64,000 bases of DNA, taken from positions 704 to 64,703 of the IMG/VR virus record IMGVR_UViG_3300017978_000368, one strand, 5' to 3'. Made by a program: the position numbers and the translations under genes. Position 1 is the first letter of the stretch. The number at the start of each line of letters is the position of its first letter. The notes below the pieces were generated by a model, which worked only from the letters and a program-made list of their open reading frames with translations, was not told the DNA's origin and did no database searches. This document shows, in pieces, positions 1 to 19,366 of this stretch. Source of the stretch: a virus.

Positions 1-16
1 GTATATTGCACCAACT

Positions 17-86
17 CCCGGACTCTCCGGTGTATCTGACGGCTCCGGGCCGACGTCATGCAGACAGATACGCCTTAACCGCATGA
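17..86 (+). ncRNA. Candidate structured cis-regulatory RNA (three interleaved helices)
   Basis: Pairings 17-22/44-49, 29-38/65-74 (10 bp, one G-U) and 56-61/81-86; the last helix overlaps the start of the SD (GAGGA 85-89) of the gene at 97. Confidence 0.55.
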
Positions 87-96
87 GGAAAAAATC

Positions 97-321
97 ATGG
101 CAAGCACCACCTTCTCTGGCCCAGTCACCTCGACAAACGGCTTCATCGGCGCAGTTACCGGCGCTGTTGCAGGTCCTGTTGCAGCTACCACGCTGACAGC
201 TTCGGGCGTCGCATCGCTGACCAACGCATCCATCTCCATGACCGCACTGCCAACAAGTGATCCTACTGTTGCTGGTCGTCTGTGGAACGACGCAGGCACC
301 CTCAAAGTTTCCGCCGGTTAA
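97..321 (+). CDS. Small virion/head-associated protein
   Basis: GAGGA SD; N-terminal MASTTFSGPV typical of genes that follow the capsid gene in this phage type (recognition only). Confidence 0.75.
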   Translation: MASTTFSGPVTSTNGFIGAVTGAVAGPVAATTLTASGVASLTNASISMTALPTSDPTVAGRLWNDAGTLKVSAG

Positions 322-329
322 TTGATCTC

Positions 330-345
330 GGGGGCTTCGGCCCCT
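330..345 (+). other. UUCG tetraloop hairpin
   Basis: GGGGC-TTCG-GCCCC in the intergenic gap; no U-tract. Confidence 0.6.
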
Positions 346-364
346 GTTCTAAAGGAGATTGATT

Positions 365-643
365 ATGGGTATGCAAACCGACATCAAAGCCGTGTCGTTG
401 GCGGCGTCTGGCACTGCGTTCAACCAGCGCACACGTATTCGTGGCGCTTTGATTGAGCCGGGTGCCAGCGCAGGTTCTGTTGTCTTCAAGGACGGCGGAT
501 CGGGCGGCACGACGATCATGACGATCAACACAACTGCCAACGGCGAGACCTTCTCAATGGTCATTCCGGCCGACGGTATCGTTTTTCAGACCGACGCGTA
601 TGTTGCTCTGACCAACGCCAAGATCACGGTGTTTTATGCCTAA
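365..643 (+). CDS. Putative structural protein (beta-rich)
   Basis: AAGGAG SD before ATG 365; position in head module. Confidence 0.75.
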   Translation: MGMQTDIKAVSLAASGTAFNQRTRIRGALIEPGASAGSVVFKDGGSGGTTIMTINTTANGETFSMVIPADGIVFQTDAYVALTNAKITVFYA

Positions 644-905
644 AGCAGCGCCCAAGAAGAAAGGTCCGTCTCTTGCGGTTGGCCGTGGCGAAAAGCTGCC
701 GGTCTCCAAAGGTGCGGGCTTGACGGCAAAGGGCCGGGCAAAATACAACCGGGAAACCGGCAGTAACCTGAAGGCTCCACAGCCCGAGGGGGGCCCACGT
801 AAAAAGTCTTTCTGCGCACGGATGTCGGGCATGCCCGGCCCGATGAAAGACGAGAGCGGCAAACCCACACGCAAGGCGGCTTCATTGGCCCGATGGAAGT
901 GCTGA
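636..905 (+). CDS. Small basic protein (DUF6321-like)
   Basis: K/R-rich; motifs GAGLTAKGRAKYN, RKKSFCARMSG, terminal RWKC. Confidence 0.7.
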   Translation: MPKAAPKKKGPSLAVGRGEKLPVSKGAGLTAKGRAKYNRETGSNLKAPQPEGGPRKKSFCARMSGMPGPMKDESGKPTRKAASLARWKC

Positions 906-906
906 C

Positions 907-1110
907 ATGACGCAGAACCACGACACCGTAAAGAACACGCTGGACATTCTTTCTGTGTTTGCAACCATTGGGTCCTTTTTGCAAATGCTGACCCCTGTGT
1001 TTGGTCTGATTGGTGCAGTCTGGACGTTGATGCGTATTGCAGAAATGGTCACCGGCAAACCTTTCGCGGAGATCATCCGCCGGAAGAAGCCCGATGCCGG
1101 GCAAGAGTAA
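907..1110 (+). CDS. Small membrane protein (possible holin-like)
   Basis: Hydrophobic core followed by basic C-terminus. Confidence 0.6.
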   Translation: MTQNHDTVKNTLDILSVFATIGSFLQMLTPVFGLIGAVWTLMRIAEMVTGKPFAEIIRRKKPDAGQE

Positions 1111-1157
1111 ACAGTTTTCAACAGCGGTTGAACCCGCATTTTCAAAGGTGGTACACC

Positions 1158-1349
1158 ATGGCTACAAAAATGAACCCCGCTTTCAAAGCAATGATCGAGA
1201 AGAACAAAGCAGGCGGTAAGGCCGCAGGCAAGCCTGCCAAGATGGCCAAGATGGCAAGCGGCGGCATGACCCGCGCTGATGGTTGTGTGTCCAAGGGCCA
1301 CACCAAGGGCAAGATGGTCAAGATGGCTGGCGGCGGCAAAGCCTGCTGA
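1158..1349 (+). CDS. Small basic protein with MAxGG motifs
   Basis: Lys/Ala/Gly/Met-rich; KMASGG and KMAGGG. Confidence 0.65.
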   Translation: MATKMNPAFKAMIEKNKAGGKAAGKPAKMAKMASGGMTRADGCVSKGHTKGKMVKMAGGGKAC

Positions 1350-1355
1350 TCTGAC

Positions 1356-1589
1356 ATGATGGCCAGTCGCGGTATGGGGGCGATCGCCCCCTCCAAGATG
1401 CCCAAGGGCGTCCGCAAGGCTCGCCGGGATGACACTGACTTCACGCAGTACGCTGAAGGCGGCAAGGTGGGGCTTTACGCCAACATCAACGCCAAGCGTG
1501 CTCGTGGGGCCAAGATGCGCAAGCCGGGGCAAAAAGGTGCTCCGACCGCGCAGGCGTTCATCGACTCGGCCAAAACAGCAAAGAAGTAA
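1356..1589 (+). CDS. Small basic protein
   Basis: Basic; contains YAEGG motif; tightly packed operon. Confidence 0.65.
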   Translation: MMASRGMGAIAPSKMPKGVRKARRDDTDFTQYAEGGKVGLYANINAKRARGAKMRKPGQKGAPTAQAFIDSAKTAKK

Positions 1590-1592
1590 ACC

Positions 1593-2291
1593 ATGGCAAC
1601 ATCCGGCGTAGCAAACTTCAACCTCGACTTGACTGAGATCGTTGAGGAGGCGTTCGAGCGCGTCGGTGGTGAGATGCGTACAGGCTACGACCTGCGCACG
1701 GCTCGCCGGTCACTGAACTTGATGTTCGCTGACTGGGCCAACCGTGGCATCAACATGTGGACCTTCGAGCAGGGCTCGATCCCGTTGGTGGCAGGCACGG
1801 CCACGTACGATCTTCCGGCCGACACAGTCGATTTGCTGGAGCACGTCATCCGCACGGGCGCGGGCAGCGCAGCCACACAGGCAGACCTGACCATTACGCG
1901 TATCAGCGTTTCTACCTACGCCACGATCCCCAACAAGCTGCAGCAAGCCCGACCCATCCAAGTCTGGATCGAGCGCTTGAACACACCGCGCATCACCGTG
2001 TGGCCCATCCCAGACAACAGCCAGCCGTACACCTTCGTGTACTGGCGCTTGAAGCGCATCCAGAATGCGGGCGATGGCATCAACACCATGGACATGCCTT
2101 TCCGGTTCATCCCCTGCATGGTGGCGGGCTTGGCCTACTACTTGGCGCTGAAGGTGCCCGGTGGCACAGAGCGTTTGGTGATTCTCAAGCAGCAGTACGA
2201 CGAAGCATGGGATTTGGCCAGCGCCGAAGATCGCGAAAAGGCAGCGGTACGTTTTGTGCCCCGCCGCCAGTACATTGGAAGCGGTACCTAA
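1593..2291 (+). CDS. Head-tail adaptor / head-completion protein
   Basis: DLTEIVEEAFER...ARRSLNLMFADWANRG pattern typical of podovirus adaptors; synteny. Confidence 0.7.
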   Translation: MATSGVANFNLDLTEIVEEAFERVGGEMRTGYDLRTARRSLNLMFADWANRGINMWTFEQGSIPLVAGTATYDLPADTVDLLEHVIRTGAGSAATQADLTITRISVSTYATIPNKLQQARPIQVWIERLNTPRITVWPIPDNSQPYTFVYWRLKRIQNAGDGINTMDMPFRFIPCMVAGLAYYLALKVPGGTERLVILKQQYDEAWDLASAEDREKAAVRFVPRRQYIGSGT

Positions 2292-2681
2292 ATGGGTAAC
2301 CGGTTTGCCAGCGCCAAGAACTCGATCGCCCAGTGCGATCGTTGTGGTTTCCGCTTCAAGCTCACGTCGCTGCGCAAGGAAATCATCAAGACCAAGACCT
2401 ACAACCTCTTGGTCTGCGACTCGTGCTGGGACCCAGATCAGCCGCAGTTGCAGTTGGGCATGTACCCAGTGGACGACCCTCAAGCCGTGCGCAACCCCCG
2501 CAGGGACACAACGTACGTGACGGCCGGACCCAACGTAGCGGGTTTTCCAACAGGCGGCAGCCGTGACATCCAGTGGGGCTGGGCCCCGGTGGGCGGGTCT
2601 CGATTTTTTGACGACGGCTTGACCCCTAACACCTTGGTGTTGACTGGAGCAGTCGGCCAAGTGACAATCTCAACATCTTAA
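2292..2681 (+). CDS. Conserved Zn-ribbon-like morphogenesis-region protein
   Basis: CDRC...CDSC pairs; DPQAVRNPR motif. Confidence 0.65.
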   Translation: MGNRFASAKNSIAQCDRCGFRFKLTSLRKEIIKTKTYNLLVCDSCWDPDQPQLQLGMYPVDDPQAVRNPRRDTTYVTAGPNVAGFPTGGSRDIQWGWAPVGGSRFFDDGLTPNTLVLTGAVGQVTISTS

Positions 2682-2691
2682 GGAGTTCATC

Positions 2692-2844
2692 ATGGACGCA
2701 AAGAAAGCAGTTCGCAAGCACGAAGCCAACATGCACCCCGGTGCAAAACCCACGAAGCTCCGCGCTGGTGGCAAGACCAACAGCGACATGCTGAAAATGG
2801 GCCGTAACTTGGCCAAGGTCGCCAATCAAAAAGCCAAGGGGTAA
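2692..2844 (+). CDS. 50-aa basic protein (not in ORF track)
   Basis: AAGGAG SD; MDAKKAVRKHEANMHPGAKPTKLRAGGKTNSDMLKMGRNLAKVANQKAKG. Confidence 0.7.
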   Translation: MDAKKAVRKHEANMHPGAKPTKLRAGGKTNSDMLKMGRNLAKVANQKAKG

Positions 2845-2846
2845 TC

Positions 2847-3050
2847 ATGGCAACGTCCTCAAAAACCAAAGCCGCCCCTAAACAGGCGGTGCTGCCCAAG
2901 GTCAACGCCATGAAACACATGGGGGACACCGACGTGTCCGTGGCCAACAACCACAGCAACGAGTACCCGGGCACCAAGACCTCCGGCATCAAAATCCGTG
3001 GCACTGGCGCAGCCACAAAAGGCGTGATGGCTCGCGGCCCAATGGCCTGA
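2847..3050 (+). CDS. Small basic protein (RGTGAATKG family)
   Basis: C-terminal KIRGTGAATKG motif; operon spacing. Confidence 0.7.
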   Translation: MATSSKTKAAPKQAVLPKVNAMKHMGDTDVSVANNHSNEYPGTKTSGIKIRGTGAATKGVMARGPMA

Positions 3051-3057
3051 TACGAAC

Positions 3058-3738
3058 ATGAACTACACCCAGTTGACCGCTGCGATCTGCGATTACACGC
3101 AGAACTTCGACCAAGACTTTGTTTCCAACATCCCAGTGTTCGTGAAGCAGGCGGAGCAGCGCATCTTCAACACGGTGCAGTTTCCGTCGATTCGCAAAAA
3201 CGTGACGGGCGTGACCTCGACAAACAACAAGTACCTGTCGTGCCCGGGCGACTTCTTGGCGGTGTATTCGCTGGCCGTGATTGACGCAACGGGCAACTAC
3301 GAGTTCTTGCTGAACAAGGATGTGAACTTCATCCGGCAGGCGTACCCCAACCCGACATCGACGGCGATCCCCAAGTACTACGCCTTGTTTGGCCCGACAA
3401 CGACCAGCGACGCGACGCCGCTCATCACGGATGAGCTGACGTTTATTCTTGGCCCGACCCCCGACGCGGTGTACAACGTCGAGCTGCATTATTACTACTA
3501 CCCTGAGTCGATCACAGTGGCCGCAGATGGCCAGACGTGGTTGGGTGACAATTTCGACTCCGTGTTGCTGTACGGCTCACTGGTCGAGGCTGTCACGTTC
3601 ATGAAGGGTGAAGCGGACATGGTTGCGCTCTACGACGGCAAGTACAAAGAAGCACTGGGCATGGCAAAACGTCTGGGCGATGGTATGGAGCGTCAGGACG
3701 CGTACCGTTCTGGCCAGTACAGACAACCGGTGAACTGA
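3058..3738 (+). CDS. Tail adaptor / tail tubular-like protein
   Basis: MNYTQLTAAI...FVKQAEQRI...LLYGSLVEA pattern; synteny. Confidence 0.65.
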   Translation: MNYTQLTAAICDYTQNFDQDFVSNIPVFVKQAEQRIFNTVQFPSIRKNVTGVTSTNNKYLSCPGDFLAVYSLAVIDATGNYEFLLNKDVNFIRQAYPNPTSTAIPKYYALFGPTTTSDATPLITDELTFILGPTPDAVYNVELHYYYYPESITVAADGQTWLGDNFDSVLLYGSLVEAVTFMKGEADMVALYDGKYKEALGMAKRLGDGMERQDAYRSGQYRQPVN

Positions 3739-3739
3739 T

Positions 3740-4147
3740 ATGGCGTTTGACCAAACTCTCACCACGCAGGCCAAGCTGGTTGCCCTGCAGGCTTTGGCCA
3801 CTGGCACGCTCAAAATGGCGCTGTACACGGCCAACGCAGACCTCAACGCAGGCACGCTGGTGTACTCCACGTCCAACGAAGTTGTGGGCACAGGCTACAC
3901 CGCTGGCGGTAACACGCTGACCAACGTGACGGTGTTGACCTCGGGCACAACCGCATACCTCGACTTTGACAACGTGGTTTGGAACCCCGCCAACTTCACG
4001 GCTCGCGGTGCGCTCATCTACAATACAAGCCTTGGCAACCTCGCTGTGGCGGTGTTGGACTTTGGGTCGGATAAAACGACCACCACAACATTCACCGTGC
4101 AGACACCGGCCAATACGGCTGACGCTGCGCTCATCCGTTTCGCATAA
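3740..4147 (+). CDS. Tail/fibre-attachment structural protein
   Basis: LKMALYT...GYTAGG...ARGALIYN...AVLDFG pattern common in tail modules. Confidence 0.65.
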   Translation: MAFDQTLTTQAKLVALQALATGTLKMALYTANADLNAGTLVYSTSNEVVGTGYTAGGNTLTNVTVLTSGTTAYLDFDNVVWNPANFTARGALIYNTSLGNLAVAVLDFGSDKTTTTTFTVQTPANTADAALIRFA

Positions 4148-4157
4148 GGGGTTTGAG

Positions 4158-4736
4158 ATGTTCAACGAAAAAGCGCATTCCGGCGACGCTGCAGCTGCAG
4201 GTTTGGTTGCAAAAACAGGTTTTGGCTCCGCTGCTCAGGGCGGCGGTGTGTTCCACGTTCAGTGCCTCGACAAAGACGGCAATCTGAAGTGGGAAGACAG
4301 TATGCACAACCTTGTGGTGAATCAGGGCCTGCAGGACATGAACACCCAGTACTTCAAGGGCTCAACCTACACGGCCGCGTTCTACCTCGGCTTGGTGCTC
4401 GGCCCCGGTTCCGGCACTGCGTATGCTGCGGCCGATACACTGGCTTCTCACGCAGGCTGGACCGAGTACACCGACTATTCCGGTTCTCGCAAAGCCGTCG
4501 CGTTTGGCACAGCCACAACGGCCGACCCGTCCGTTATCAGTAACAGTGCTTCCCCAGCACAGTTCAGCATTACTGGCGCTGGCGGCGTAGTCGCTGGTGC
4601 GTTCCTGTGCACAGTGGCCAGCGGCACTTCGGGCGTGTTGTTCTCTGAAGCTGACTTCCAGTCCCCCGGCGACCGTACCGTCGTGTCGGGCGACACCCTG
4701 AACGTCACCTACACGTTCAGCCTCGACGCAGCGTAA
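4158..4736 (+). CDS. Tail structural protein
   Basis: NLVVNQG motif, beta-rich; ATG 4158 preferred over upstream in-frame start. Confidence 0.65.
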   Translation: MFNEKAHSGDAAAAGLVAKTGFGSAAQGGGVFHVQCLDKDGNLKWEDSMHNLVVNQGLQDMNTQYFKGSTYTAAFYLGLVLGPGSGTAYAAADTLASHAGWTEYTDYSGSRKAVAFGTATTADPSVISNSASPAQFSITGAGGVVAGAFLCTVASGTSGVLFSEADFQSPGDRTVVSGDTLNVTYTFSLDAA

Positions 4737-4748
4737 TAGGCGGGGCCT

Positions 4749-5669
4749 GTGTTTGCAGGTAGCGCTTTTTCAGCAGCCCCTTTTTCAGCCACAGCTGGAG
4801 GGGTTGTTTTTGATGCGGCTGTTTTAGCTGCAGCAACCGCTACCGATTTTGAGTCAGCCACGTCCGTTGACTTTGCCGTTTTACATTCCGCAACTGCTAC
4901 TGGCAGTGACACGGCGTCAGTCGCCGCTTCTGTTTTCAACGCCGTAGCCCAAGACACCGCGCAAGGTGCGGACACGTTTGCGGCACTTGCAGACTTTGCG
5001 GTACTGGTTGAGGAACTCACCAATGGTGCAGACACCATTTCGTCGTTGGTTGACTTTGATGCAGCTGTTAGCGAGCGGTCAAACGCGGTAGATCGAGCGG
5101 TTGCGCGGGTAGATTTTGCAAGCAGCCTTTCGTCGGCGGCCACAGGCCGAGACGTCGTTTCCGCCGCTGCCACATTCCCAGTCAGTCTTGTGGACGAGGC
5201 CGCAGGCAGCGAGACACTTGCTCCAACAACCACCTACAACATATCCATGAGCGAGGGCGCTGCAGGGTCTGAAACCGTGGCCGCGCAGGTGGACTGGGCT
5301 GTTTTCATTGACGAGTTCTTGGCCGCGCAGGACAGCACGGTGGTGGCCCCTTCCGTTTTTAACGCGCCTGTTTCCGAGACCGTTGCAGCAGCGGATTCCG
5401 TCTTGGCGTTTGCGGTCTTTTTTGCTACGATGACCGACGGGGCTGTGGCTGTGGATCAGATCACAGCGCGGTTGCTCTGGGAGATAATCAATGACGCGCA
5501 GAACGCTGATTGGGCGCAACTGGGCGATTCACAGGCCGCGTCGTGGGGGACCATTGAAAATGCGCAGGTTTCTAACTGGGCGACAGCAGCCGATGCACAG
5601 AACCCCGGTTGGAACACACTTAACACCGCGCAGCCCAACTCTTGGGTTGTAATAAAAACACAATCGTGA
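4749..5669 (+). CDS. Ala/Asp-rich virion protein (fibre-associated)
   Basis: MFAGSAFSAAPFS N-terminus; low-complexity repeats; GTG start. Confidence 0.6.
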   Translation: MFAGSAFSAAPFSATAGGVVFDAAVLAAATATDFESATSVDFAVLHSATATGSDTASVAASVFNAVAQDTAQGADTFAALADFAVLVEELTNGADTISSLVDFDAAVSERSNAVDRAVARVDFASSLSSAATGRDVVSAAATFPVSLVDEAAGSETLAPTTTYNISMSEGAAGSETVAAQVDWAVFIDEFLAAQDSTVVAPSVFNAPVSETVAAADSVLAFAVFFATMTDGAVAVDQITARLLWEIINDAQNADWAQLGDSQAASWGTIENAQVSNWATAADAQNPGWNTLNTAQPNSWVVIKTQS

Positions 5670-5676
5670 GTAACGT

Positions 5677-8600
5677 ATGGCACTGACTGTCAAAGACCGG
5701 GTAAAAGAAAGCTCCACAACGACCGGAACGGCCGACTTTGTGCTGGGCGGCGCTGCCGCAGGGTTTCAAACTTTTGCCGTGATTGGCAACACCAACACCA
5801 CGTATTACGCCGCTGTCGATCAAGCCACTGGTGACTGGGAAGTGGGCGTGGGTACCTACTCCTCGACCGGCCCAACCTTGACCCGTGACACGGTGCTGGA
5901 GTCCAGCAACTCCGGCAGCAAGGTGAACTTTGCCGCAGGCTCCAAGGACGTGTTCTGTACCTACCCGGCAGAGCGCTCGGTGTATCTGGACGCAGCGGGT
6001 TCAGCGGTATCCGTGTTGGACATCGGCACGTTGGGCGCAAGCACCGCCAACATCACCACAGCCAACATCACGGCTGGCACGTTGACAACAACCCCGACCA
6101 GCGGGAACGACATCACCAACAAGACCTACGTGGACACCTTGGTGGCCTCGGGCATCCACTTTCATCAGCCTGTGCGGGTTGAGTCTCCCATCAACCTGAA
6201 CGCGACATACAACAACGGCACATCCGGTGTGGGCGCAACGCTGACCAACGCTGGAACCCAAGCGGCGCTGGAGGTTGACGGCATCACTGTTGCGGTCAAC
6301 GACCGCGTGTTGGTGTATGAGCAAACCACTCAGACGCAGAACGGTATCTATGTCGTCACCGACGTGGGTTCTGGCTCGACCAACTGGGTCCTGACCCGAT
6401 CCAGCGATGCGGACACGTACGTCATCAACAGCGCAGCGGGATTGAGCGAAGGCTCTACTGTTTTTGTGCAACAAGGCGCGACAGGCGCAGGCGAGACCTA
6501 CACCTGCAACACAAGCGGCGTCATCACGTTTGGCACGACCAACATCACGTTTGCGCAGATTTCTTCTGCGCAGATTTACTCGGCCGGTACTGGCCTGACG
6601 CTCAGCGGCACGCAGTTCAGTATCACGAACACAGGCACAGCGGGTACGTACGGCGGCGCAGGCACTGTCCCCATCATCACGACCAACGCACAGGGGCAGG
6701 TAACTTCCGTCACCCCTACGGCCATCGCCATCGCTGCGGCAGCCGTATCCGGCCTTGCTCCATCGGCAACCACGGACACCACCAATGCAGCAAACATCAC
6801 ATCGGGCACGCTCCCTGTTGCGCGTCTTAACGGCTCGTACACTGGCATCACTGGAGTTGGTACTCTCGCTGCTGGTACTTGGAACGGCAGCACTATTGCT
6901 GCTGCTTACGGTGGCACTGGCCAGTCTTCTTATGCTGTTGGCGACATTCTGTATGCGGGCACAACAACGTCTCTCACAAAGCTCGCGGGTGTAGCCACAG
7001 GCAATGCGTTAATTTCTGGCGGCGTGGGCACTGCGCCAGCTTGGGGCAAGATCGGCCTGCAAACGCACATCAGCGGCACGCTACAGATTGTCAACGGTGG
7101 CACAGGCGCAACAGACGCGGCAACTGCTCGGGCAAACCTTGGCGCTGGTACAGGCAATGGCTCGGTCACTTCGGTGGCCGCAGGCTCCTACCTGACTGGC
7201 GGCACGATCACAACGAGCGGCACACTGGCCGTTGATGCCACCACAACAAACACAGCGGGCAAGGTCGTCGCACGAGACGGCTCGGGCAACTTCAGCGCAG
7301 GCACCGTTACGGCCAACTTGACTGGTAACGTCACGGGTAACGTCACGGGTAACGTCACTGGCTCTTCTGGCTCCACTACCGGCAACGCCGCAACAGCCAC
7401 AGCACTGTCCAGCGGCCAATCGAACTGGAGCGGCACGGGTGTTCTTGGTAACGTCGTCGGTTTGATGGCTTGGAAGAACTACGGCAACAGCCACGTCATC
7501 TTTGATGCGTCCAACAGCACAACACCAAGCGGAACGGCTTGCAATAACACCAATCCGCAGAACAACTGGGCGGGGTCATACCCAACACTGATGGGCTGGA
7601 ATGGCGCAAACACTTACGGCGTTCGCGTGGACTCTGCTCGGGTTGCAGATAGCGCAGGCTCTACCTCCTCAGTAAGCGCCACTACGTCAACAGGAATTCA
7701 GTCCAGCTTTGTAACAACCATCAATACCACGACCCCCGGTCTGGCAACTTACGGTATTGCTTTTTCGGGGTCTAGTGCTGCGGATAACGCGCAGGGCATT
7801 ACATGGGGCTGGTCAGGAACCAGTGCGCAGGCAGGCATTTATGTTCAGTCATCTGGTGCGTACGGCACCAAGATGTATTTTGGAACGACGGACTCGTTTG
7901 CAACAGGTTCAAAGACTTCGATGTCGATCGACCACAACGGTATTATTCAAGTTCCAAGAAACTACCTGCAGTCGGACTCTTCTCTACGCGCCCCCATCTT
8001 CTACGACAGCAACAACACCGGGTACTACGTTGACCCGACTGCTGCAACGTCGGCTGTATTTGGGGGCTCAGTTGACGCGAGAACCTACAACTACGCTGGA
8101 GTGTTGTTAAACGCCAGCGGTACAGGCTCGGCCGGATCAGCCATCGGAATGCAGCAAGTAACTGCGGAAGGGTGGACTGGCCTTTTCGTAGACTATGAAC
8201 CAAACGCGGGTTGGGGTTTATATCACGATAACCCAAACAACTATTTCTGTATCACTGCTGAAAGCACCACCGGAAATTTCCGCAGCTTCACCGTGCCAAG
8301 CCGCTATTCCGGGAACCGTACAGCGTACGAAAAAATCAGGTTTGACCAAAACAATGGTGATATTATTTCTGGTGGAATTTCGTACGCGTACGGGTCAATG
8401 CGTTCGCCAATTTTTTACGACTACAACGACACCGGGTACTACCTTGACCCTGCGAGCGCATCCAACTTAAACCGGCTGGTGATTCAACCACGCATTGACA
8501 ACTACTATGTGGGCAACGTGTCCAGTACTGACCCCGTAGCAGATTGGCAATCGCTAACCAATACCACTGGGCAGTTTATTGTTTCGCAGTTTAACTACAC

Positions 8601-10053
8601 GCCCTCATACGCAAACTCACCGCCAAGTGTTTACACTTACGGCGCAGTGATGAGCTGGAGAACCGCCAACCACTCGTTCCAGCTTTACGCCTCTCACACA
8701 GGCGACATCACGTATAAAACGCAGTGGAATAACGACAACTACTCTGGTTGGTTGTACCCAATGGTTTACGGGCGTACCAACGGTGCGGGCGGCGCTGTGT
8801 ACGGAACAATTTTTTACGATCAAAGTGATACAGCGTACTACGTTGACCCGAACAGCGCTTCTGTTTTGTACTACACGAGCATGCAACGGGCAAGTTCAGG
8901 TTCTGACGCAAACGGACTTCCTGTTTTGAAAATCGCTGGATTCTCAAACTACGATTCTCTTGAGTTGGGCATTCAGTCAAACTACCAAGCCCAAGTCAGA
9001 ACTTACGGCAACGACATTCACTACTACTCAGGTCACTGGAGAACCATAGGAAACGTAGCATCCGAAAACCATCAGCACTACTGGTACACAAGTCAAGCAG
9101 GCAGTGCTAATTGGAGCACTTGGAAGATGCAGTTGGATCAGAGTGCAGCCTTGTCTGTTACAGGGTCAATACGCGCCCCCATCTTCTACGACAGCAACGA
9201 CACTGGGTATTACCTTGACCCAAACAGCACAAGCGACTCCGCCTTGCGGATTCGTGGTGGCGCTCTGCACGGCCCTAACCCAACATGGGGGATGTATTTG
9301 CTTGTCGGGGGTGATGGAAGACAGGGTTACATAGACAGCACAACTGTTGCGTCTGTTTGTACAACGGACGGCAACTTGCACATAGATGCTGCTAGCGGAA
9401 AAGGGCTATACCTTAACTACTACGACGGCAACGTAATCAACCTTGGCAACGGGGCCAACGGCATAGTTTCAACCATAAACACTGACGGCAGTTTCCGCCC
9501 CCAGATTGTTTACGACTACAACAACACCGGGTATTACCTTGACCCGACAGGCGGCACTTCACTGCGCACCGTGGGGGATTGGCGTGCTGACTCCTCTGGC
9601 TGGACGGGGGAGTTTGCTGGAAAGATTCAGTACCACGCAAGCAATTGGTATTTCCAAGCAGCGGGCGTGTTTCAATTTAGAAATTCCGGCGGGTCGCAAT
9701 TATTTGTTTGCGATGCTTCCGGTAATATCACTGCTACGGGCAACGTCACCGCGTACTCAGACGTCCGCGTCAAGGAAAACATCGTAACCATCGACTCCGC
9801 TTTGGACAAGGTTTTGAACCTGCGCGGGGTCTACTACAACAAGATTGGCAATCCTGAGCGCCGTGTCGGTGTTGTGGCGCAAGAAATTGAAGCAGTGCTT
9901 CCAGAGGTGGTGCGTTCAGTGGTTACCACCGACCCATCAACGGGGCAAACAACAGAATTGTTGGCCGTAGATTACGGCAACATAACCGGCTTGTTGATCG
10001 AGGCGGTAAAACAGCTGTCTGCTAAAGTGGACGAACTTCAAAAGAGGGTTTAA
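5677..10053 (+). CDS. Long tail fibre with C-terminal intramolecular chaperone (peptidase S74-like)
   Basis: Thr/Gly/Ser-rich shaft, GGTGAT motifs, YSDVRVKENI...LRGVYY S74 signature and terminal coiled coil. Confidence 0.9.
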   Translation: MALTVKDRVKESSTTTGTADFVLGGAAAGFQTFAVIGNTNTTYYAAVDQATGDWEVGVGTYSSTGPTLTRDTVLESSNSGSKVNFAAGSKDVFCTYPAERSVYLDAAGSAVSVLDIGTLGASTANITTANITAGTLTTTPTSGNDITNKTYVDTLVASGIHFHQPVRVESPINLNATYNNGTSGVGATLTNAGTQAALEVDGITVAVNDRVLVYEQTTQTQNGIYVVTDVGSGSTNWVLTRSSDADTYVINSAAGLSEGSTVFVQQGATGAGETYTCNTSGVITFGTTNITFAQISSAQIYSAGTGLTLSGTQFSITNTGTAGTYGGAGTVPIITTNAQGQVTSVTPTAIAIAAAAVSGLAPSATTDTTNAANITSGTLPVARLNGSYTGITGVGTLAAGTWNGSTIAAAYGGTGQSSYAVGDILYAGTTTSLTKLAGVATGNALISGGVGTAPAWGKIGLQTHISGTLQIVNGGTGATDAATARANLGAGTGNGSVTSVAAGSYLTGGTITTSGTLAVDATTTNTAGKVVARDGSGNFSAGTVTANLTGNVTGNVTGNVTGSSGSTTGNAATATALSSGQSNWSGTGVLGNVVGLMAWKNYGNSHVIFDASNSTTPSGTACNNTNPQNNWAGSYPTLMGWNGANTYGVRVDSARVADSAGSTSSVSATTSTGIQSSFVTTINTTTPGLATYGIAFSGSSAADNAQGITWGWSGTSAQAGIYVQSSGAYGTKMYFGTTDSFATGSKTSMSIDHNGIIQVPRNYLQSDSSLRAPIFYDSNNTGYYVDPTAATSAVFGGSVDARTYNYAGVLLNASGTGSAGSAIGMQQVTAEGWTGLFVDYEPNAGWGLYHDNPNNYFCITAESTTGNFRSFTVPSRYSGNRTAYEKIRFDQNNGDIISGGISYAYGSMRSPIFYDYNDTGYYLDPASASNLNRLVIQPRIDNYYVGNVSSTDPVADWQSLTNTTGQFIVSQFNYTPSYANSPPSVYTYGAVMSWRTANHSFQLYASHTGDITYKTQWNNDNYSGWLYPMVYGRTNGAGGAVYGTIFYDQSDTAYYVDPNSASVLYYTSMQRASSGSDANGLPVLKIAGFSNYDSLELGIQSNYQAQVRTYGNDIHYYSGHWRTIGNVASENHQHYWYTSQAGSANWSTWKMQLDQSAALSVTGSIRAPIFYDSNDTGYYLDPNSTSDSALRIRGGALHGPNPTWGMYLLVGGDGRQGYIDSTTVASVCTTDGNLHIDAASGKGLYLNYYDGNVINLGNGANGIVSTINTDGSFRPQIVYDYNNTGYYLDPTGGTSLRTVGDWRADSSGWTGEFAGKIQYHASNWYFQAAGVFQFRNSGGSQLFVCDASGNITATGNVTAYSDVRVKENIVTIDSALDKVLNLRGVYYNKIGNPERRVGVVAQEIEAVLPEVVRSVVTTDPSTGQTTELLAVDYGNITGLLIEAVKQLSAKVDELQKRV
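7321..7362 (+). repeat. 12-bp tandem repeat encoding TGNV
   Basis: actggtaacgtc/acgggtaacgtc x3 plus a partial copy. Confidence 0.85.
7981..9546 (+). repeat. Five dispersed R-x-P-I-F-Y-D-x-N-x-T-G-Y-Y-x-D-P modules in the tail fibre
   Basis: Copies at about 7981, 8401, 8805, 9172 and 9493. Confidence 0.9.
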
Positions 10054-10056
10054 ATC

Positions 10057-10404
10057 ATGGCAATCACATACACATGGGCCGTCACCGGCATGAAGGTCAC
10101 AACCGTCGGCAGTGAAGCCGATTACGTTGTTCAGACATACTGGACCAAAACCGGCACGGACGAGAACGGCAACACCGGTACGTTCAGCGGCGCGACGCCA
10201 CTGGACCCAAACCCAGATCAGACAGACTTTGTGCCCTACGACCAACTGACACAAGAAATTGTGCTGGGCTGGATTCAGCCCGTTGTGACGGGCAGCTACG
10301 AAGAGCACGTCAACGGCGTCATTGCAAAACAGATTGCAGATAAGATCGACCCCGTGACCGAACCCGCCCTGCCATGGGCCCCACCAACCCCACCAACACC
10401 GTAA
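10057..10404 (+). CDS. Tail-fibre-associated protein (putative assembly chaperone)
   Basis: MAITYTW...FVPYDQLTQEIVLGW...LPW pattern directly after the fibre. Confidence 0.65.
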   Translation: MAITYTWAVTGMKVTTVGSEADYVVQTYWTKTGTDENGNTGTFSGATPLDPNPDQTDFVPYDQLTQEIVLGWIQPVVTGSYEEHVNGVIAKQIADKIDPVTEPALPWAPPTPPTP

Positions 10405-10413
10405 GGAGAACGC

Positions 10414-10602
10414 ATGGAACCGAAAATCAACATTGGCGAAATCACCGTGACTGAGTACAATCTCATCATGAAACAGCTGACCACTGGGCAGCTGGGCGAG
10501 TGTCTTGACCTGTTTATGAAGCTGCGCGAAATTGGCGTGAAAGCGCAGCAAGAAATGCAGGCAAATCAAGGCCCCAGAAACGTACCGCCGCCTGCTGCAT
10601 AA
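10414..10602 (+). CDS. Small hypothetical protein
   Basis: AAGGAG SD; operon packing. Confidence 0.6.
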   Translation: MEPKINIGEITVTEYNLIMKQLTTGQLGECLDLFMKLREIGVKAQQEMQANQGPRNVPPPAA

Positions 10603-10616
10603 GCTAAGGACCTGAC

Positions 10617-12158
10617 ATGAGCACGTACTCACCCGACCTTCGGATCGAACTTATCACGACCGGCGACCAAGCGGGTACGTGGGGCACCACCACCAACACA
10701 AACTTGGCGTACGTCATTGAGCAGGCGGTTGCAGGATACATTTCTGTGGCCGTGGCTTCGGCCAACCAAGCCCTGACATACATCAACGGCGGCTCCGCGA
10801 CTGCGGCGCTCAACCAGTCTGTGCATGCGGCAATCGCCCTGACCACCTCCACGGGGGCCAACTTTGCTGTGTACGCCCCTCCGGCGTCCAAGCAATACAC
10901 TATCTACAACGCCAGCAGCTACACGGCCACGTTGTACAACTCGACCGTGATTGGCAACACCACAGCGGCCGGGGCAGGGGTGGCAATCCCTGCAGGCAAA
11001 ACCGTCACCGTGTGGACCGACGGTACCAACGTGTACTTCCAGAACAACCACCTGTCTGCGTTGACGCTGGACACCGATCTGGCCATTGCCGACGGCGGCA
11101 CTGGGGCTTCGACTGCCGCCAACGCTCGCACCAACCTCGGTGTGACTGCCACTGGCCAAGACACCACATACGCCTACCGGGCCAACAACCTGTCTGATCT
11201 GGCCAGCGCTTCGTCGGCTCGAACCAATTTGGGCTTGGGCACGATTGCCACGCAAAACGCAAACGCGGTCAGCATCACTGGCGGCTCCATCACCGGGATC
11301 ACGGACTTGGCCATTGCCGACGGCGGCACTGGGGCCTCGACAGCTGCGGATGCACGAAGCAACCTCGGCGTCACCGCGACCGGTCAGGACACCACATACG
11401 CCTACCGGGCCAACAACCTGTCGGATTTGTCCAGCGCCTCAACCGCACGAAGCAACCTCGGCCTTGGTACCATGGCCACCCAGAACGCGAACAGCGTGTC
11501 CATCACGGGCGGTTCAATCACGGGCATCACAGACTTGGCAGTTGCTGATGGCGGTACTGGGGCTTCCACGGCCGCAGACGCACGAACCAATCTGGACGTC
11601 CCTTCTCGCGGCGGCTCCGGCGCATCGGGCACTTGGGCCATCGGCATTTCTGGCACGGCAGCCACAGCTACAAGCCCCGCATCGGGCGGCTCGTTCATCA
11701 CCTCAAGCAACATCGGCAGCCAGTCGGTGAGCTTTGCCACGAACGCAACGAACGCCACGAACGCGACGAACGCCACAACAGCCGCCTCTTGCTCAGGCAA
11801 CGCGGCAACGGCCACAAGTCCGCAAGCGGGCGGGACATTCATCACGAGCAATAACATAGCGTTTCAAACGGTTGCAAACGCCACCAACGCTACCAGCGCC
11901 ACCAACGCTACCAACGCTACCAACGCCTCATTCCCGGCATCGGGCGGCTCGTTCATCACTTCAAGCAACATCGGCAGCCAGTCGGTTGCTTCTGCATCGA
12001 ACGCGAACAGTGCGGCACAAGTGGCCACGACCAACTTTTTGATCTACGAGTCCGGAGGCAAGTTGCTGTTTAAGTACGGCGGAACGACAATCGCGTCCAT
12101 GGATTCTTCTGGCAATTTCAAGACGTTGGCAGACATCACTGCCTACGGTTCACCTTGA
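10617..12158 (+). CDS. Second tail fibre/spike protein
   Basis: N-terminal GDQAGTWGTTTNTNL; repeated LAIADGGTGASTAADARxNLG units. Confidence 0.85.
   Translation: MSTYSPDLRIELITTGDQAGTWGTTTNTNLAYVIEQAVAGYISVAVASANQALTYINGGSATAALNQSVHAAIALTTSTGANFAVYAPPASKQYTIYNASSYTATLYNSTVIGNTTAAGAGVAIPAGKTVTVWTDGTNVYFQNNHLSALTLDTDLAIADGGTGASTAANARTNLGVTATGQDTTYAYRANNLSDLASASSARTNLGLGTIATQNANAVSITGGSITGITDLAIADGGTGASTAADARSNLGVTATGQDTTYAYRANNLSDLSSASTARSNLGLGTMATQNANSVSITGGSITGITDLAVADGGTGASTAADARTNLDVPSRGGSGASGTWAIGISGTAATATSPASGGSFITSSNIGSQSVSFATNATNATNATNATTAASCSGNAATATSPQAGGTFITSNNIAFQTVANATNATSATNATNATNASFPASGGSFITSSNIGSQSVASASNANSAAQVATTNFLIYESGGKLLFKYGGTTIASMDSSGNFKTLADITAYGSP
11079..11600 (+). repeat. 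228-bp tandem repeat (about 2.3 copies, 76 aa)
   Basis: LAIADGG/LAVADGG codons start at 11079, 11307 and 11535. Confidence 0.9.
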
Positions 12159-12168
12159 GGAGACGAGC

Positions 12169-12735
12169 ATGGCATTAACCCCCAGTGGCACCATTTCTCT
12201 TGGTGACATCAACACAGCAACGGGCAAGTCGGCCACAGCTCCGATCAGCATGAGCGGGACGGCGGTAAGGTGTATCTCGGGCACGACCCTCCTGACGGCG
12301 GTGAGCATGAGTCAGCTTCGAAATAAAAACTGTGCGGGGGGCACGATTACGGCAGGGACACGAACCGTCTCGGGCAAGTCCGGCACGAACACATCTAACG
12401 GGTATACCAGCAACGCTTCTGTGATATACGGGTCTATCACCCCCGGTAACATCACAACTTTTTACCCCAACGCAACTTCTATCGAGACCTTGTCCAGTTC
12501 TCAAACCAACGGCACTGGCAATTTCGCAAACACTTTTAACGTCAGAGGTACCAGCAGCGCAGGTTTTGGCAACGTAGTGAACATACAGGTTGGCGACAAC
12601 AACCGCTTATCCTTGAACTTGGTTACTTTCGTGACGCCATCAGGCCCGGCGGTATACACATTATCCAGTCCGAATCCGCTTGTGGCCGCTGCAGACGTTG
12701 GCGCGACAAGAGACTGGGTCATAACACAGGTGTGA
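12169..12735 (+). CDS. Fibre-tip/fibre-associated protein
   Basis: MALTPSGTISLGDIN N-terminus typical of adhesin-like proteins beside fibres. Confidence 0.6.
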   Translation: MALTPSGTISLGDINTATGKSATAPISMSGTAVRCISGTTLLTAVSMSQLRNKNCAGGTITAGTRTVSGKSGTNTSNGYTSNASVIYGSITPGNITTFYPNATSIETLSSSQTNGTGNFANTFNVRGTSSAGFGNVVNIQVGDNNRLSLNLVTFVTPSGPAVYTLSSPNPLVAAADVGATRDWVITQV

Positions 12736-12741
12736 CGAACA

Positions 12742-13887
12742 ATGAACCGCTTTATTTTTATTGAAAATGGCGTTGTACGCACCGCCGAAACCACCGACAT
12801 TCCTGAAGCAGGGGGTGCATTGGTGCTTTGCGATCTGCTCAACGTCTTCTCTCCGGGCGACGTGTTTGACCGGGCAAAGTACGAAGCGGCGTACCCCGAC
12901 ATGTACCACCCTTTTGCGCCAGCAACTCCGCAGACGCTGATCTACTCCCCCACCGCGTTCATTGAGCGCTCACAGCTCGCGCCTGCGGGGTTGCAGCTCA
13001 GCTTGCACGCACACATACCGGCGGCGTACGTCTACACCAGCAGCGACACGCAAGAGAGCTTTGCCAACTTGCAAGCGTACGGGCGCGTTCATGGAATCGA
13101 CGTTCCGGACTTCTCTCTGTGCGACAAGAGTGTTGCGCCGCAAAAGTTCTTGGCGGCAGGGTTTCCAACTCTGGCAACCAGCGCCGTGCGCAGCAAAGCT
13201 GACATCGAGGCTTTCGCTTTTGACCGCGTCATCTTAAAACCTGCGGTGTCGTCCGACACACGTTCTTCCGGCACGCTGGCCCCCGCCCTCTACAAAATCT
13301 TCACAAAGGCACAGGCCGTTGCGGAGCTTGATGCGCTTGGCTTCTTTTCGGACGCCGTTGCACAGACAGAGCCGATCGTTGTCCAGCAAGTAGCGGACGG
13401 TGAGGGCGACAGCTTTGATGCTTTGATACTGTCGGGCTGCATCAACGGTGCGGGCGATGTGTGGCACTTTTCTCCGCTGTGTTTGGAGACAAAGTTCAAC
13501 GAGCAAGGGCGTTTTGTGCGCTCTACGTGGTCAAACGAAAACGACACAGACGAAACTGCAGAACTGCAAAGCAAGGTTTCCACACTGCTTGCGGGGAACA
13601 AAAACTGTTTCTACCACCTGCAGTTTCTAAAAGCAGGCGGTGTCTGGGTGCCGCACGATTTTCAGTTCCGCACAACCTACTACACAGAAGCGGGACTTGC
13701 GCAAACCGGCCACCTCGGCTTTAAGCAAGACATCCTCAAGTTTGTGTACGACAAGTCAACCAACAAACCGGCAATGCCGTGCGCGTTCGGGTTGAACTTT
13801 TTCAACCTCCGTGACGGTTTTTCTTTTTCCAAGTTTGTAACTGGCCAGACGCGCAGCGAAGTCTTGTCTAAAACGTCACCCCCATGA
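12742..13887 (+). CDS. ATP-grasp-fold protein (divergent)
   Basis: DKS...FLAAGFPT, VILKP, PIVVQQ and HLQFL...HDFQFR in the order expected for an ATP-grasp fold. Confidence 0.6.
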   Translation: MNRFIFIENGVVRTAETTDIPEAGGALVLCDLLNVFSPGDVFDRAKYEAAYPDMYHPFAPATPQTLIYSPTAFIERSQLAPAGLQLSLHAHIPAAYVYTSSDTQESFANLQAYGRVHGIDVPDFSLCDKSVAPQKFLAAGFPTLATSAVRSKADIEAFAFDRVILKPAVSSDTRSSGTLAPALYKIFTKAQAVAELDALGFFSDAVAQTEPIVVQQVADGEGDSFDALILSGCINGAGDVWHFSPLCLETKFNEQGRFVRSTWSNENDTDETAELQSKVSTLLAGNKNCFYHLQFLKAGGVWVPHDFQFRTTYYTEAGLAQTGHLGFKQDILKFVYDKSTNKPAMPCAFGLNFFNLRDGFSFSKFVTGQTRSEVLSKTSPP

Positions 13888-14702
13888 AAATGCAGCGAAC
13901 ACTTGCGCTCTTCTTGGCTTTCTTTTTGTCTGCTGCGCACGCGGAGCAACCCACTGTGCACTCGACAGGAGAAGCGCATGCTCGTTTGCTGGCAAAAATG
14001 TTTTTCCCTGATGCGCCCATGTTGCCCAGCCCCGGAGCAGACGGGTTGCTGACGTGGAAAAAACTTGATGGCAACAAGACGGATGTGGCGATACACGTTG
14101 CGTTGGCTGTGCACTTTCTCCCAACGCTTCACGCACAAGAAGACCCGGCCAAGAAAAACGAACTGTTGGCGACGCTGGCTTCCGCACCACAAGCGCTGGC
14201 AGTACGCCCTGACTTTCCTGCGGACTCCTTGCAAGACTTGAAGCGACTCAACCGGCCGCTGACTGTCGGATGGGTGGGCCATGCCTGCAAAGCGCTTTTG
14301 GCCGAGCCTCTTTCCAAACAGGGCGTTGCGTTCGTTTATGTTGCCTACAAGACCCCACAAGAAGCCACTGCCGCGATGCTTGGTGGCCACATTGACGCCA
14401 CTTGCCCAGCCGCCGCTGCCCTGCGACAGACTGTGCAAAACAAGACCGGGAAAATCTTGCTGGACATTACGGGGTACCACGGCTTTGTGCTGACCACATA
14501 CCTGTTTGCTGGCAGAGAAATGACGGAAGAAACCAAGAGAAGCATCGTGAAGCAAGTCACCCGTAAACTCACGGCAGAGGACCACGCCTTGGCCGAAGCC
14601 AACGGTTTTTTGCTGAGCGTTCGGACGGGTAACGATGCGGTTGCTACTTTTGAAAGAGACCGTAAAATCTGGACCCAGATTGCTCGCCAGAGCAGTCCCT
14701 AG
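13884..14702 (+). CDS. Bug/TctC-like periplasmic solute-binding protein (divergent)
   Basis: Signal-peptide-like N-terminus; VAYKTPQEATAAMLGGHIDA resembles the Bug-family VPYKG...A..DLLGG.VD segment. Confidence 0.6.
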   Translation: MKMQRTLALFLAFFLSAAHAEQPTVHSTGEAHARLLAKMFFPDAPMLPSPGADGLLTWKKLDGNKTDVAIHVALAVHFLPTLHAQEDPAKKNELLATLASAPQALAVRPDFPADSLQDLKRLNRPLTVGWVGHACKALLAEPLSKQGVAFVYVAYKTPQEATAAMLGGHIDATCPAAAALRQTVQNKTGKILLDITGYHGFVLTTYLFAGREMTEETKRSIVKQVTRKLTAEDHALAEANGFLLSVRTGNDAVATFERDRKIWTQIARQSSP

Positions 14703-14721
14703 TTTTTATTGGGGTGTTGCG

Positions 14722-15168
14722 ATGATTGCAGAAATTGCTGCTGCCAATGCTGCGTTTGCGGTCATCAAGGGCGCTCTGGCCAACGGCAAGGAGCTGCACC
14801 AGCTCGGCTCCCGGGTCTTTGACTACTTCGATAACAAGGCCAAGATTCAAGAGAAGGCCACCCAGAAGGGTGGTGGCTCAGACCTCGAAGAGTTCATGGC
14901 GCTTGAGAACCTCAAGCAGCAGGAAGAAGAACTTCGTGAGCGCATGGTCTACGCTGGTCGCCCGGGTATGTGGAATGACTGGGTGAATTTCCAAGCAGCC
15001 GCAGCCAGAAAGCGCCGAGAGGCCCAAGAAGCGGCCAAACGTGAGGCGGCACGCAGGGCGGCAAGACTGGCCCAAATGGCTGAGTACATCGCCATCGGCA
15101 TCGCCTCGTTGATCCTTGCCGCGCTCATGATCGGCGGCATCGTCATCTACATGAAGCACCTGCGATGA
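14722..15168 (+). CDS. Coiled-coil protein with C-terminal TM helix (lysis region)
   Basis: MIAEIAAANAAFAVIKG; terminal hydrophobic helix. Confidence 0.65.
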   Translation: MIAEIAAANAAFAVIKGALANGKELHQLGSRVFDYFDNKAKIQEKATQKGGGSDLEEFMALENLKQQEEELRERMVYAGRPGMWNDWVNFQAAAARKRREAQEAAKREAARRAARLAQMAEYIAIGIASLILAALMIGGIVIYMKHLR

Positions 15169-15782
15169 GTGAAGAAAAGCTAAACGCCAACTCAACACTC
15201 GACAAGGTGCTCGGGTATGTGGACTCGCCGTTCAAGCTGTTCGCCATCCTCATCATGGGCGTGGTGGCCTTTGCTGGGTACTTTCTGTGGCAGAACCAAT
15301 CATTCATGATGGACGCCTACAAGGAGTCCAAGAAGCTGCCGGAGATCAACGCAGGCCGAGCCGACGAAGCGAGCGCCATGCTGTTCAAGCAGACCGGTGC
15401 TGCGGTGGTGGCCATCTTCAAGGTCAACCCCCTGTTCAACTCCCGGGTGCTGTTCAAGGCGTACACCAAGGATGGCAGGGACAAGAGCATCGAGGACATC
15501 GACGTGGGCCTGTTCAGCCAAAACTCGTCGAACAACAACGATGTGGTCAAGCTCATGACCAACGACATTCCGTGCTCAGAGTACCGGTACGCGCAGTCTG
15601 AAGTCGGGCTGTGGTACATCGAGAAGGGCGTGACCTTCACCTGCCGGGTGAGCGTGCCGCCAGACAACCACCGGTTTGTAGGCCAGATCACAGTGGGCTG
15701 GGCACAGCCTCCAGAAAACTTGGAGCAGACCCGATTCATGCTGGAGATCGCCAGCGCCATGTTGACCAAAAGGGGAAATTGA
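15165..15782 (+). CDS. Single-TM protein with GAF-like domain; T4 holin T-like
   Basis: N-terminal TM (FKLFAILIMGVVAFAGYFLW); C-terminal CRVSVPP...FVGQITVGW; in lysis cassette. Confidence 0.5.
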   Translation: MSEEKLNANSTLDKVLGYVDSPFKLFAILIMGVVAFAGYFLWQNQSFMMDAYKESKKLPEINAGRADEASAMLFKQTGAAVVAIFKVNPLFNSRVLFKAYTKDGRDKSIEDIDVGLFSQNSSNNNDVVKLMTNDIPCSEYRYAQSEVGLWYIEKGVTFTCRVSVPPDNHRFVGQITVGWAQPPENLEQTRFMLEIASAMLTKRGN

Positions 15783-16716: not shown

Positions 16717-16724
16717 GGTAAACC

Positions 16725-19309: not shown

Positions 19310-19366
19310 TTGCTCTGGGAAGCCCTACATGATAGACTCAACCAACCCCCTTTCCGAGAGGCGCAC

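Follow-up and report, generated by a model that had tools for sequence, protein, structure and literature searches.

The locus downstream of the major capsid protein gene

We analysed a 64,000-nucleotide stretch of viral DNA (hereafter the window), which comprises bases 704-64703 of the 65,655-bp IMG/VR virus record IMGVR_UViG_3300017978_000368, and focused on an RNA element encoded at its very beginning, at positions 14-89 of the + strand. This element is an unnamed, widely conserved folded RNA of about 70 nt found in a large family of aquatic phages (podophages), and it lies between the gene of the major capsid protein (MCP) and a small open reading frame (ORF) of 74 amino acids. For the upstream context, record positions 1-2603 were included as locus L001, so that a window position equals the L001 position minus 703. 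The 3′ end of the MCP gene, which stops at L001:620 and encodes a fragment with weak matches to Phage_capsid_4 and Mu-like_gpT (PF10124), is directly followed, still outside the window, by a strong intrinsic terminator (L001:670-696) and then, in 5′ to 3′ order, by TG and the hexamer TATATT, the helices of the element, the Shine-Dalgarno (SD) sequence GAGGA and the 74-aa ORF; an SU10-type adaptor is encoded at 1593-2288. A second hairpin, CGTGGGC cta GCCCACG, occupies L001:630-646, and the T-tract of the MCP terminator extends into the promoter preceding the element.

The first-pass annotation of this DNA had described three interleaved helices (A, B and C, with primes marking their 3′ arms) and had remarked that this is more structure than a terminator needs. 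This was borne out, as the capsid-gene terminator is a separate element upstream, and the RNA in question, which has no U-tract to accompany a GC-rich hairpin, does not qualify as an intrinsic terminator of the capsid gene. A role as frameshift or read-through stimulator for the capsid gene was also rejected, since the terminator, the promoter and sometimes a whole inserted gene intervene between the capsid gene and the element. The element goes with the downstream gene and not with the 3′ end of the capsid gene, because it stays with that gene when another gene has been inserted after the capsid gene. Such inserts, of roughly 0.6-1.2 kb and located between the MCP terminator and the promoter of the element, were found in many relatives (L003, L004, L010, L013, L021, L023, L032, L047, L052, L057, L061, L069, L071, L073 and L074). 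Those that were read (e.g. L003, L013, L023) start with a motif of the GIY-YIG homing endonuclease type, IYKIIN..N.KFY(I/V)GS, and in several loci the insert is a gene resembling a homing endonuclease. The region is a hot spot of recombination, where genes have been inserted and the downstream gene is hypervariable.

Conservation and compensatory change

Taken from this one sequence alone, the helices are no more than chance gives. Nested folding recovers only helix B, with a z of -0.65 against shuffles, and a brute-force search found unrelated helix sets of the same order, A-B-A′-C-B′-C′, with 18-27 bp in total (mostly at least 21), in 79 of 81 stretches of 700 nt. The element is real because it is conserved with compensatory change across homologues: covariation in homologous phages had been named beforehand as the check, and heavy compensatory change was found in all helices.

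In a structure-blind MAFFT alignment of 66 distinct homologues (A1), in which four helices were scored, 86.7% of the cells were paired versus 30-43% with the partners slid, double-change cells numbered 278 versus 47-86 in the slid controls, and none of 500 shuffles matched the observed values. A covariance model, R1, was then based on helix B and on a further helix, D, leaving A and C outside the model, and the resulting alignment (A2) held 85 distinct sequences. Helix B shows changes on both sides at all of its 10 pairs, with 92% of the cells paired, while helix D pairs in 100% of the cells, its middle pair in A2 being UA in 36 sequences, AU in 35, GC in 8 and CG in 6, and unpaired in none of the 85. 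In a fifth helix, E, the pair C54-G63 is CG in 81 sequences and UA in 3, and positions 55/62 are GA in 52, GC in 14 and UA in 12. For the two helices outside the model, arms were swapped between sequences. In 80 of 85 sequences the 5′ region contained a complement of the A′ arm of that same sequence, versus 33% for arms from other sequences, with 12 different arm sequences represented; the corresponding values for helix C were 77 of 85 and 12%, with 22 different arm sequences. Additionally, helices B and D together contain 73 G.U pairs versus 4 A.C pairs in A2, and the pairing therefore belongs to the + strand RNA. That window positions 14-89 encode a genuine structured RNA, conserved across the family, is nearly certain.

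A three-way junction with two loop-to-tail pseudoknots

Helices A (CCCGGA with TCCGGG), B (GGTGTATCTG with CAGATACGCC; 10 bp including one G.U pair, T31.G72) and C (TCATGC with GCATGA) were all found where they had been predicted (Table 1), and the comparative evidence confirms that their arms interleave as A-B-A′-C-B′-C′ in a genuine double-pseudoknotted RNA. While these three helices stand, the count of three was incomplete, as the fold comprises five helices around a three-way junction once D and E are added. Judged from the alignment, the core is the junction of helices B, D and E, joined by the single adenosines A39, A53 and A64, and all three positions are A in 81 of the 85 sequences.

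Table 1. Features at the start of the window, from the predicted promoter to the first gene (window coordinates)
Feature	Position	Strand	Remarks
-10 hexamer TATATT, TG immediately 5′	2-7	+	Predicted sigma70-type promoter
Predicted transcript start (A14) and 3-nt unpaired 5′ end	14-16	+	Deduced from the promoter
Helix A, 5′ arm (5′ tail)	17-22	+	Pairs with 44-49, the loop of hairpin D
Linker L1	23-28	+	2-10 nt in the family; pyrimidine-rich, nearly G-free
Helix B, 5′ arm	29-38	+	Pairs with 65-74; closes the three-way junction
Junction adenosine A39	39	+	96% conserved
Hairpin D	40-52	+	Stem C40-G52, G41-C51, G42-C50; loop C43 plus A′ arm (44-49)
Junction adenosine A53	53	+	100% conserved
Hairpin E	54-63	+	Stem C54-G63 plus G55.A62; loop 56-61 is the helix C 5′ arm
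Junction adenosine A64	64	+	99% conserved
Helix B, 3′ arm	65-74	+	Pairs with 29-38
Linker L3	75-80	+	3-13 nt in the family; A/C-rich, G-poor
Helix C, 3′ arm (3′ tail)	81-86	+	Pairs with the loop of hairpin E; 2-nt overlap with the SD
SD sequence GAGGA of the downstream gene	85-89	+	
Gene after the leader, 74 aa	97-321	+	Conserved N-terminus M..TTF.GPV.S.NGF, hypervariable C-terminus

The 5′ arm of helix C is assigned to the loop of the short hairpin E because C54 and G63 covary and 55/62 can pair; hairpin E thereby mirrors D, where the A′ arm likewise sits as a hairpin loop. The D loop (7 nt) is nearly fully paired with the 5′ tail, and the E loop (6 nt) is fully paired with the 3′ tail. The loops leave 0-1 unpaired nucleotides on their 5′ side and none on their 3′ side, a geometry that is that of fully paired kissing loops, and the fold is therefore sterically plausible at the level of secondary structure. 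Within linker L1, only 7 G were counted in 371 nt across the family. Neither L1 nor L3 gave a signal of pairing with the SD or the early coding sequence, own and swapped arms scoring equally. A pairing of the start codon region, GTCATG (55-60) with CATGGC (96-101), was rejected: it is a by-product of the CATG palindrome, and clades whose helix C differs do not keep it.

Promoter, leader and Shine-Dalgarno sequence

The RNA has its own predicted sigma70-type promoter just after the capsid-gene terminator. In 52 of 69 distinct upstream regions, a hexamer of the form TA[TC]A[AT][TA] has its last base 7-10 nt (mode 9) ahead of helix A; this -10 hexamer is directly preceded by TG in 31 regions and by TGn in 11, and the seventh nucleotide behind it is A in 45 of 51. 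In loci with an inserted gene next to the MCP gene, a -35 box close to the consensus, TTGACA, stands at 16-18 nt, and the insert-bearing loci carry a full TTGACA-N16/17-TATATT promoter before the leader. From this arrangement, transcription probably starts about 3 nt before helix A. A phage-specific promoter consensus was considered and rejected, as TGTATATTG occurs unrepeated in the window.

At its other end, the element adjoins or runs into the SD of the gene that comes first behind the capsid gene, an overlap that the first-pass annotation had noticed: C′ takes in the first two bases of GAGGA, and the ATG follows at 97. Across the family the SD begins 0-5 nt after C′, in one clade (L014, L040, L048, L056, L070) it lies fully inside C′, and the distance from the end of C′ to the AUG is mostly 8-14 nt. 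With a promoter 7-10 nt upstream, an SD at the 3′ end, + strand pairing and a constant context, the element has the general make-up of a cis-regulatory mRNA leader, and it is probable, on the layout of the locus, that the RNA constitutes the whole 5′ leader of the mRNA encoding the small gene after the MCP gene.

Distribution among aquatic phages

Eighty related IMG/VR loci were retrieved by a search with the MCP fragment, and the capsid search gave at least about 600 related contigs. A constrained helix search found the arrangement in 71 of these 80 loci (72 were reported, one of them false by eye), and in all 71 the element lies immediately upstream of a gene beginning M..TTF.GPV (or MGFATHLGPW), inserts notwithstanding. 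The window contains a single R1 copy (14-88, 70.7 bits), and five other near-complete genomes also hold one copy each (6 genomes in total). A context-blind scan of IMG/VR with the core pattern GACNGTCCCGGCNGAC yielded at least 120 matching stretches. Among the matches listed, which represent 80 loci, 62 loci were R1-positive; a gene of the M..TTF.GPV type lies downstream in all 62, and an MCP homologue (43-91% identity) lies 70-1270 nt upstream in 58, the upstream sequence of the other 4 spanning about 45-850 nt, too short to reveal the MCP. The 18 R1-negative loci among these listed matches were chance matches, mostly in GC-rich sequence. Overall, more than 150 related phage contigs, as well as cultured phages, carry the element, with a single copy per genome.

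Among cultured phage genomes, a BLAST search with the element gave no match, whereas R1 placed it ahead of the gene that follows the MCP gene in Pelagibacter phage HTVC023P (36.9 bits) and phage DSL-LC04 (32 bits), and also in the uncultured virus MW202675; a weak R1 match in Pelagibacter phage HTVC027P (14.4 bits, E 0.16) was confirmed by eye, and an AT-rich version was recognised by eye in phage 023Pt_psg01. The element was not recognised in CRP-901, Alcaligenes phage QDWS535, Caulobacter phage RW or Pag-Yong1. In the leader of Planktothrix phage Pag-Yong1 (L082:3134-3205), inspection by eye revealed a hairpin, CCCGGGG/CCCCGGG, whose loop CCGTCTCC pairs with the SD-containing GGAGACGG, and this phage thus appears to carry a different, simpler H-type pseudoknot at the same place, with the SD on the 3′ arm, of a kind that nested folding cannot show. 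The Pag-Yong1 leader sequence is identical in MinM2 and Pra-JY27, the three "different-host" records having 65,014 bp each.

The element was also present in half of 52 related contigs found in metagenome-assembled genomes (MAGs). These near-complete family contigs (L221-L272, 55-64 kb) were binned in MAGs of unrelated phyla, including an archaeon and Dehalococcoidia; the placements are probably binning artefacts, and the MAG taxonomy therefore says nothing on the host. As the element is present in phages with different hosts, SAR11 pelagiphages and freshwater phages among them, any partner of the RNA would have to be phage-encoded or universal.

The downstream gene and a possible operon

Homologues of the protein encoded after the leader range from 65 to 246 aa and have only about 16 N-terminal residues in common, a pattern like that of a virion-attached protein with exchangeable distal domains. 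Searches with the downstream proteins gave no Pfam match, no relative in the PDB and, in the ESM Atlas, viral hypothetical proteins only. The PHROG matches were to one family of unknown function and, marginally, to one spanin family, the latter being taken as chance, and an AlphaFold model of a 177-aa subtype was all-beta with a predicted local distance difference test (pLDDT) score of 47, and unusable. The gene at the same position in phage DSL-LC04 is annotated as "cement protein", and the positional counterpart in SU10, gp10, is an Ig-like putative minor capsid protein (PMC9509320). We take the downstream gene, as an assumption, to encode a protein that decorates or cements the capsid.

Immediately behind the stop codon of this ORF, TTGATCTC (322-329) has its pairing partner in GAGATTGA (355-362), and this partner extends over the SD of the following gene, whose ATG is at 365; between the two arms lies a GGGGC(UUCG)GCCCC hairpin (331-344). 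Roughly half of the relatives share the arrangement with compensatory changes, e.g. TTTAGCTC/GAGCTAAA in L076, and in the remaining relatives the stop codon overlaps the SD (TAGGAG). The hairpin has a poor U-tract and is part of the SD-sequestering stem, and by its sequence the 322-362 stem looks like a translational-coupling device and not a terminator. No convincing promoter or terminator was found in window positions 1800-21000, a span of 19 kb, and a long structural operon may therefore begin with this leader.

Possible function of the leader RNA

Based on these findings, we propose, with a probability of roughly 45%, that the RNA is a cis-acting translational operator or attenuator, which on the sequence evidence is the most likely reading. 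Docking of the 3′ tail in the E loop through helix C would place the SD at the end of, or inside, a rigid helical arm, and whatever stabilises the fold would reduce the access of the 30S subunit. The stabiliser could be the fold's own stability or a phage-encoded protein, for which the unassembled decoration protein or the capsid protein would be the obvious candidates. Such control would match the output of the decoration-like protein to a strong promoter, and it would probably pass to the next gene as well, whose SD is sequestered in a stem beginning right behind the stop codon. An operator is favoured because the element is specific to one gene and occurs once per genome, because it contacts the SD, which is sequestered in one clade, because it is combined with a near-consensus promoter, and because the SD of the next gene is sequestered by the stem at the stop codon of this gene.

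Several points weigh against this proposal. The transcript start, an effect on translation and a binding partner are predictions; helix C only adjoins the SD in the majority of sequences, and this need not keep the 30S subunit from binding; and helices of 6-10 bp are stable alone, with no sign of an RNA that switches. Furthermore, a plain hairpin would be enough for simple attenuation, and the elaborate fold hints at a more specific role. CRP-901 and Pag-Yong1 are without the motif and yet keep the conserved N-terminus of the protein. No decoration or capsid protein of a double-stranded DNA (dsDNA) phage is known to bind RNA.

Among the alternatives, a protective role of the 5′ end, which we consider unlikely, would account for the position of the fold on the transcript: a structure like the exoribonuclease-resistant RNAs (xrRNAs) would shield a long structural-gene mRNA from 5′-end-dependent decay by RppH, by RNase E entry or scanning, or by RNase J, with the 5′ terminus tucked by the junction into the D/A arm, the 3′ tail closing the pseudoknot and no trans factor needed. 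Consistent with this, helix A keeps a fixed distance from the promoter and begins some 3 nt behind the predicted start of the transcript, the leader may head a long operon, the occurrence in phages of different hosts fits an RNA-only function, and the topology, with a three-way junction, the 5′ tail in the core and a pairing of loop and 3′ tail, resembles that of the flavivirus xrRNAs. However, each genome has a single copy and other operon starts lack one, a 5′ end of three unpaired nucleotides is marginal as a barrier to RppH and RNase E, the close tie to the SD would be left unexplained, and a literature search turned up no phage xrRNA. In bacteria, moreover, a simple 5′ hairpin suffices for protection.

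A riboswitch, in which a small ligand at the AAA junction or at hairpins D/E would stabilise the docking of the SD-bearing 3′ tail through helix C, seems quite improbable. The complex pseudoknot with about 10 nearly invariant junction nucleotides, the 3′ pseudoknot strand that adjoins or covers the SD, the spread over phages of different hosts, and a layout that recalls the SAM-II and preQ1 translational OFF switches are all as expected of such a switch, but the single-nucleotide linkers leave little space for a pocket, helix C (6-8 bp) should form without ligand, and neither an expression platform nor a conserved alternative pairing that would join L1 or L3 to the SD or to the start of the coding sequence was found. 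No Rfam aptamer matched the element, nor is a metabolite link to a capsid-decoration gene obvious.

Very improbable is a cis-acting processive antiterminator that, like the put RNA of phage HK022, would modify RNA polymerase to pass downstream signals. A strong promoter stands directly before the element, which opens a long block of genes, and with about 70 nt and several helices it resembles the put RNA in size class; yet window positions 1800-21000 hold no convincing intrinsic terminator to be passed, the hairpin after the decoration gene is part of an SD-sequestering stem and has a poor U-tract, and the fixed contact with the SD would again be unexplained. The chance is slimmer still for a self-cleaving ribozyme that would process read-through transcripts of the capsid gene. 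Small, pseudoknotted and phage-borne, the element has a strand order that equals the P1, pseudoknot and P2 order of the pistol ribozyme, but a strong terminator precedes it, the promoter already sets the 5′ end, the junction consists of three adenosines only, the P3 helix and the conserved nucleotides of pistol are lacking, and no ribozyme family matched at E ≤ 10. Finally, chance complementarity or a DNA-level element (operator, recombination linker or cruciform), for which the non-significant single-sequence statistics and the recombination hot spot with its inserted genes and hypervariable downstream gene could be cited, is refuted for practical purposes by the massive compensatory variation in interleaved helices and the excess of G.U over A.C pairs, and the helices are kept while linker lengths vary.

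Significance

Few structured RNAs combine covariation on this scale with a pair of pseudoknots around a tight three-way junction, and similarly complex folds have often turned out to be riboswitches, ribozymes or specific protein operators. At its most far-reaching, and this we regard as rather unlikely, the element would represent a new class of complex-fold regulatory RNA with twin loop-to-tail pseudoknots, which would sense a ligand or an assembly-state signal, or catalyse, and would time or meter the decoration gene and coupled structural genes across very abundant aquatic podophages including the SAR11 pelagiphages. If the element binds a phage structural protein, assembly would feed back on translation, which is unusual for a dsDNA phage. 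Should it instead block RNases, it would matter that no xrRNA-like element is known from a phage. The element is abundant by the counts of matching stretches and related contigs given above, it is found in cultured SAR11 phages, and it leads a hypervariable, putative virion gene; with a short leader and a consensus sigma70 promoter, reporter assays in E. coli, probing and structural work would be straightforward.

Comparison with known RNAs

The first-pass annotation could not match the element to a named Rfam family, and this agrees with a cmscan-type search of window positions 1-1500 with the 4227 models of Rfam 15, which gave no match at E ≤ 10; 15 diverse homologous loci likewise gave none on the element at E ≤ 1. 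Part of the motif may already lie within the 8,495 unnamed candidate RNAs that were reported from IMG/VR (Fremin et al., 2023; PMC10690425).

Mu-gpT-DE (RF03012, 53 positions) is a conserved RNA downstream of Mu gpT-like major head genes, and the capsid protein here weakly matches PF10124; the element studied here, however, is tied to the downstream gene and not to the capsid gene. In five genomes RF03012 gave no match on the element even at E ≤ 10, its best matches scored 9.8-12.4 bits (cut-off 49) and lay elsewhere, and the window's own genome had none.

Further likenesses, to the pistol ribozyme, the flavivirus xrRNAs, the phi29 packaging RNA (pRNA) and the purine riboswitches, are best taken as resemblances and not as membership. 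The pistol ribozyme, which is frequent in phage and metagenome DNA, appears to share the strand order of hairpin, loop pseudoknot and second helix, but the element lacks its conserved nucleotides and G-U cleavage site, has the extra helices D and E, and has a pseudoknot of 10 bp versus 6; the linker between B′ and C′ is variable (3-13 nt) and unstructured, and there is therefore no P3. With the flavivirus xrRNAs the element would share a size of about 70 nt, the three-way junction, the 5′ tail in the core and the pairing of a hairpin loop with the 3′ tail. However, the xrRNA 5′ tail pairs with a junction strand and not with a hairpin loop, its helices are shorter, it resides in the 3′ untranslated region of RNA viruses and not in a bacterial mRNA leader, and no Rfam match links the two. 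The phi29 pRNA and the purine riboswitches also combine a compact three-way junction with two hairpin loops in Watson-Crick loop pairing, but the pRNA loops pair between molecules and those of the purine riboswitches with each other, whereas here each loop would pair with a flanking tail; single-adenosine linkers and the continuity of the RNA with the mRNA further set the element apart, again with no Rfam match.

The pseudoknots of the T4 gene 32 leader and of E. coli rpsO (S15) and the double pseudoknot of the alpha operon (S4) have no homology to the element in sequence or fold, the element having a three-way junction and two loop-to-tail pseudoknots, and the protein here is a putative capsid-decoration protein and not a nucleic-acid-binding one. 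Nevertheless, these autogenous operators, like the arrangement proposed here, place a pseudoknot at or next to the ribosome-binding site of one gene, and the pseudoknot of T4 gene 32 also lies at the 5′ end of its leader, as the element does here.
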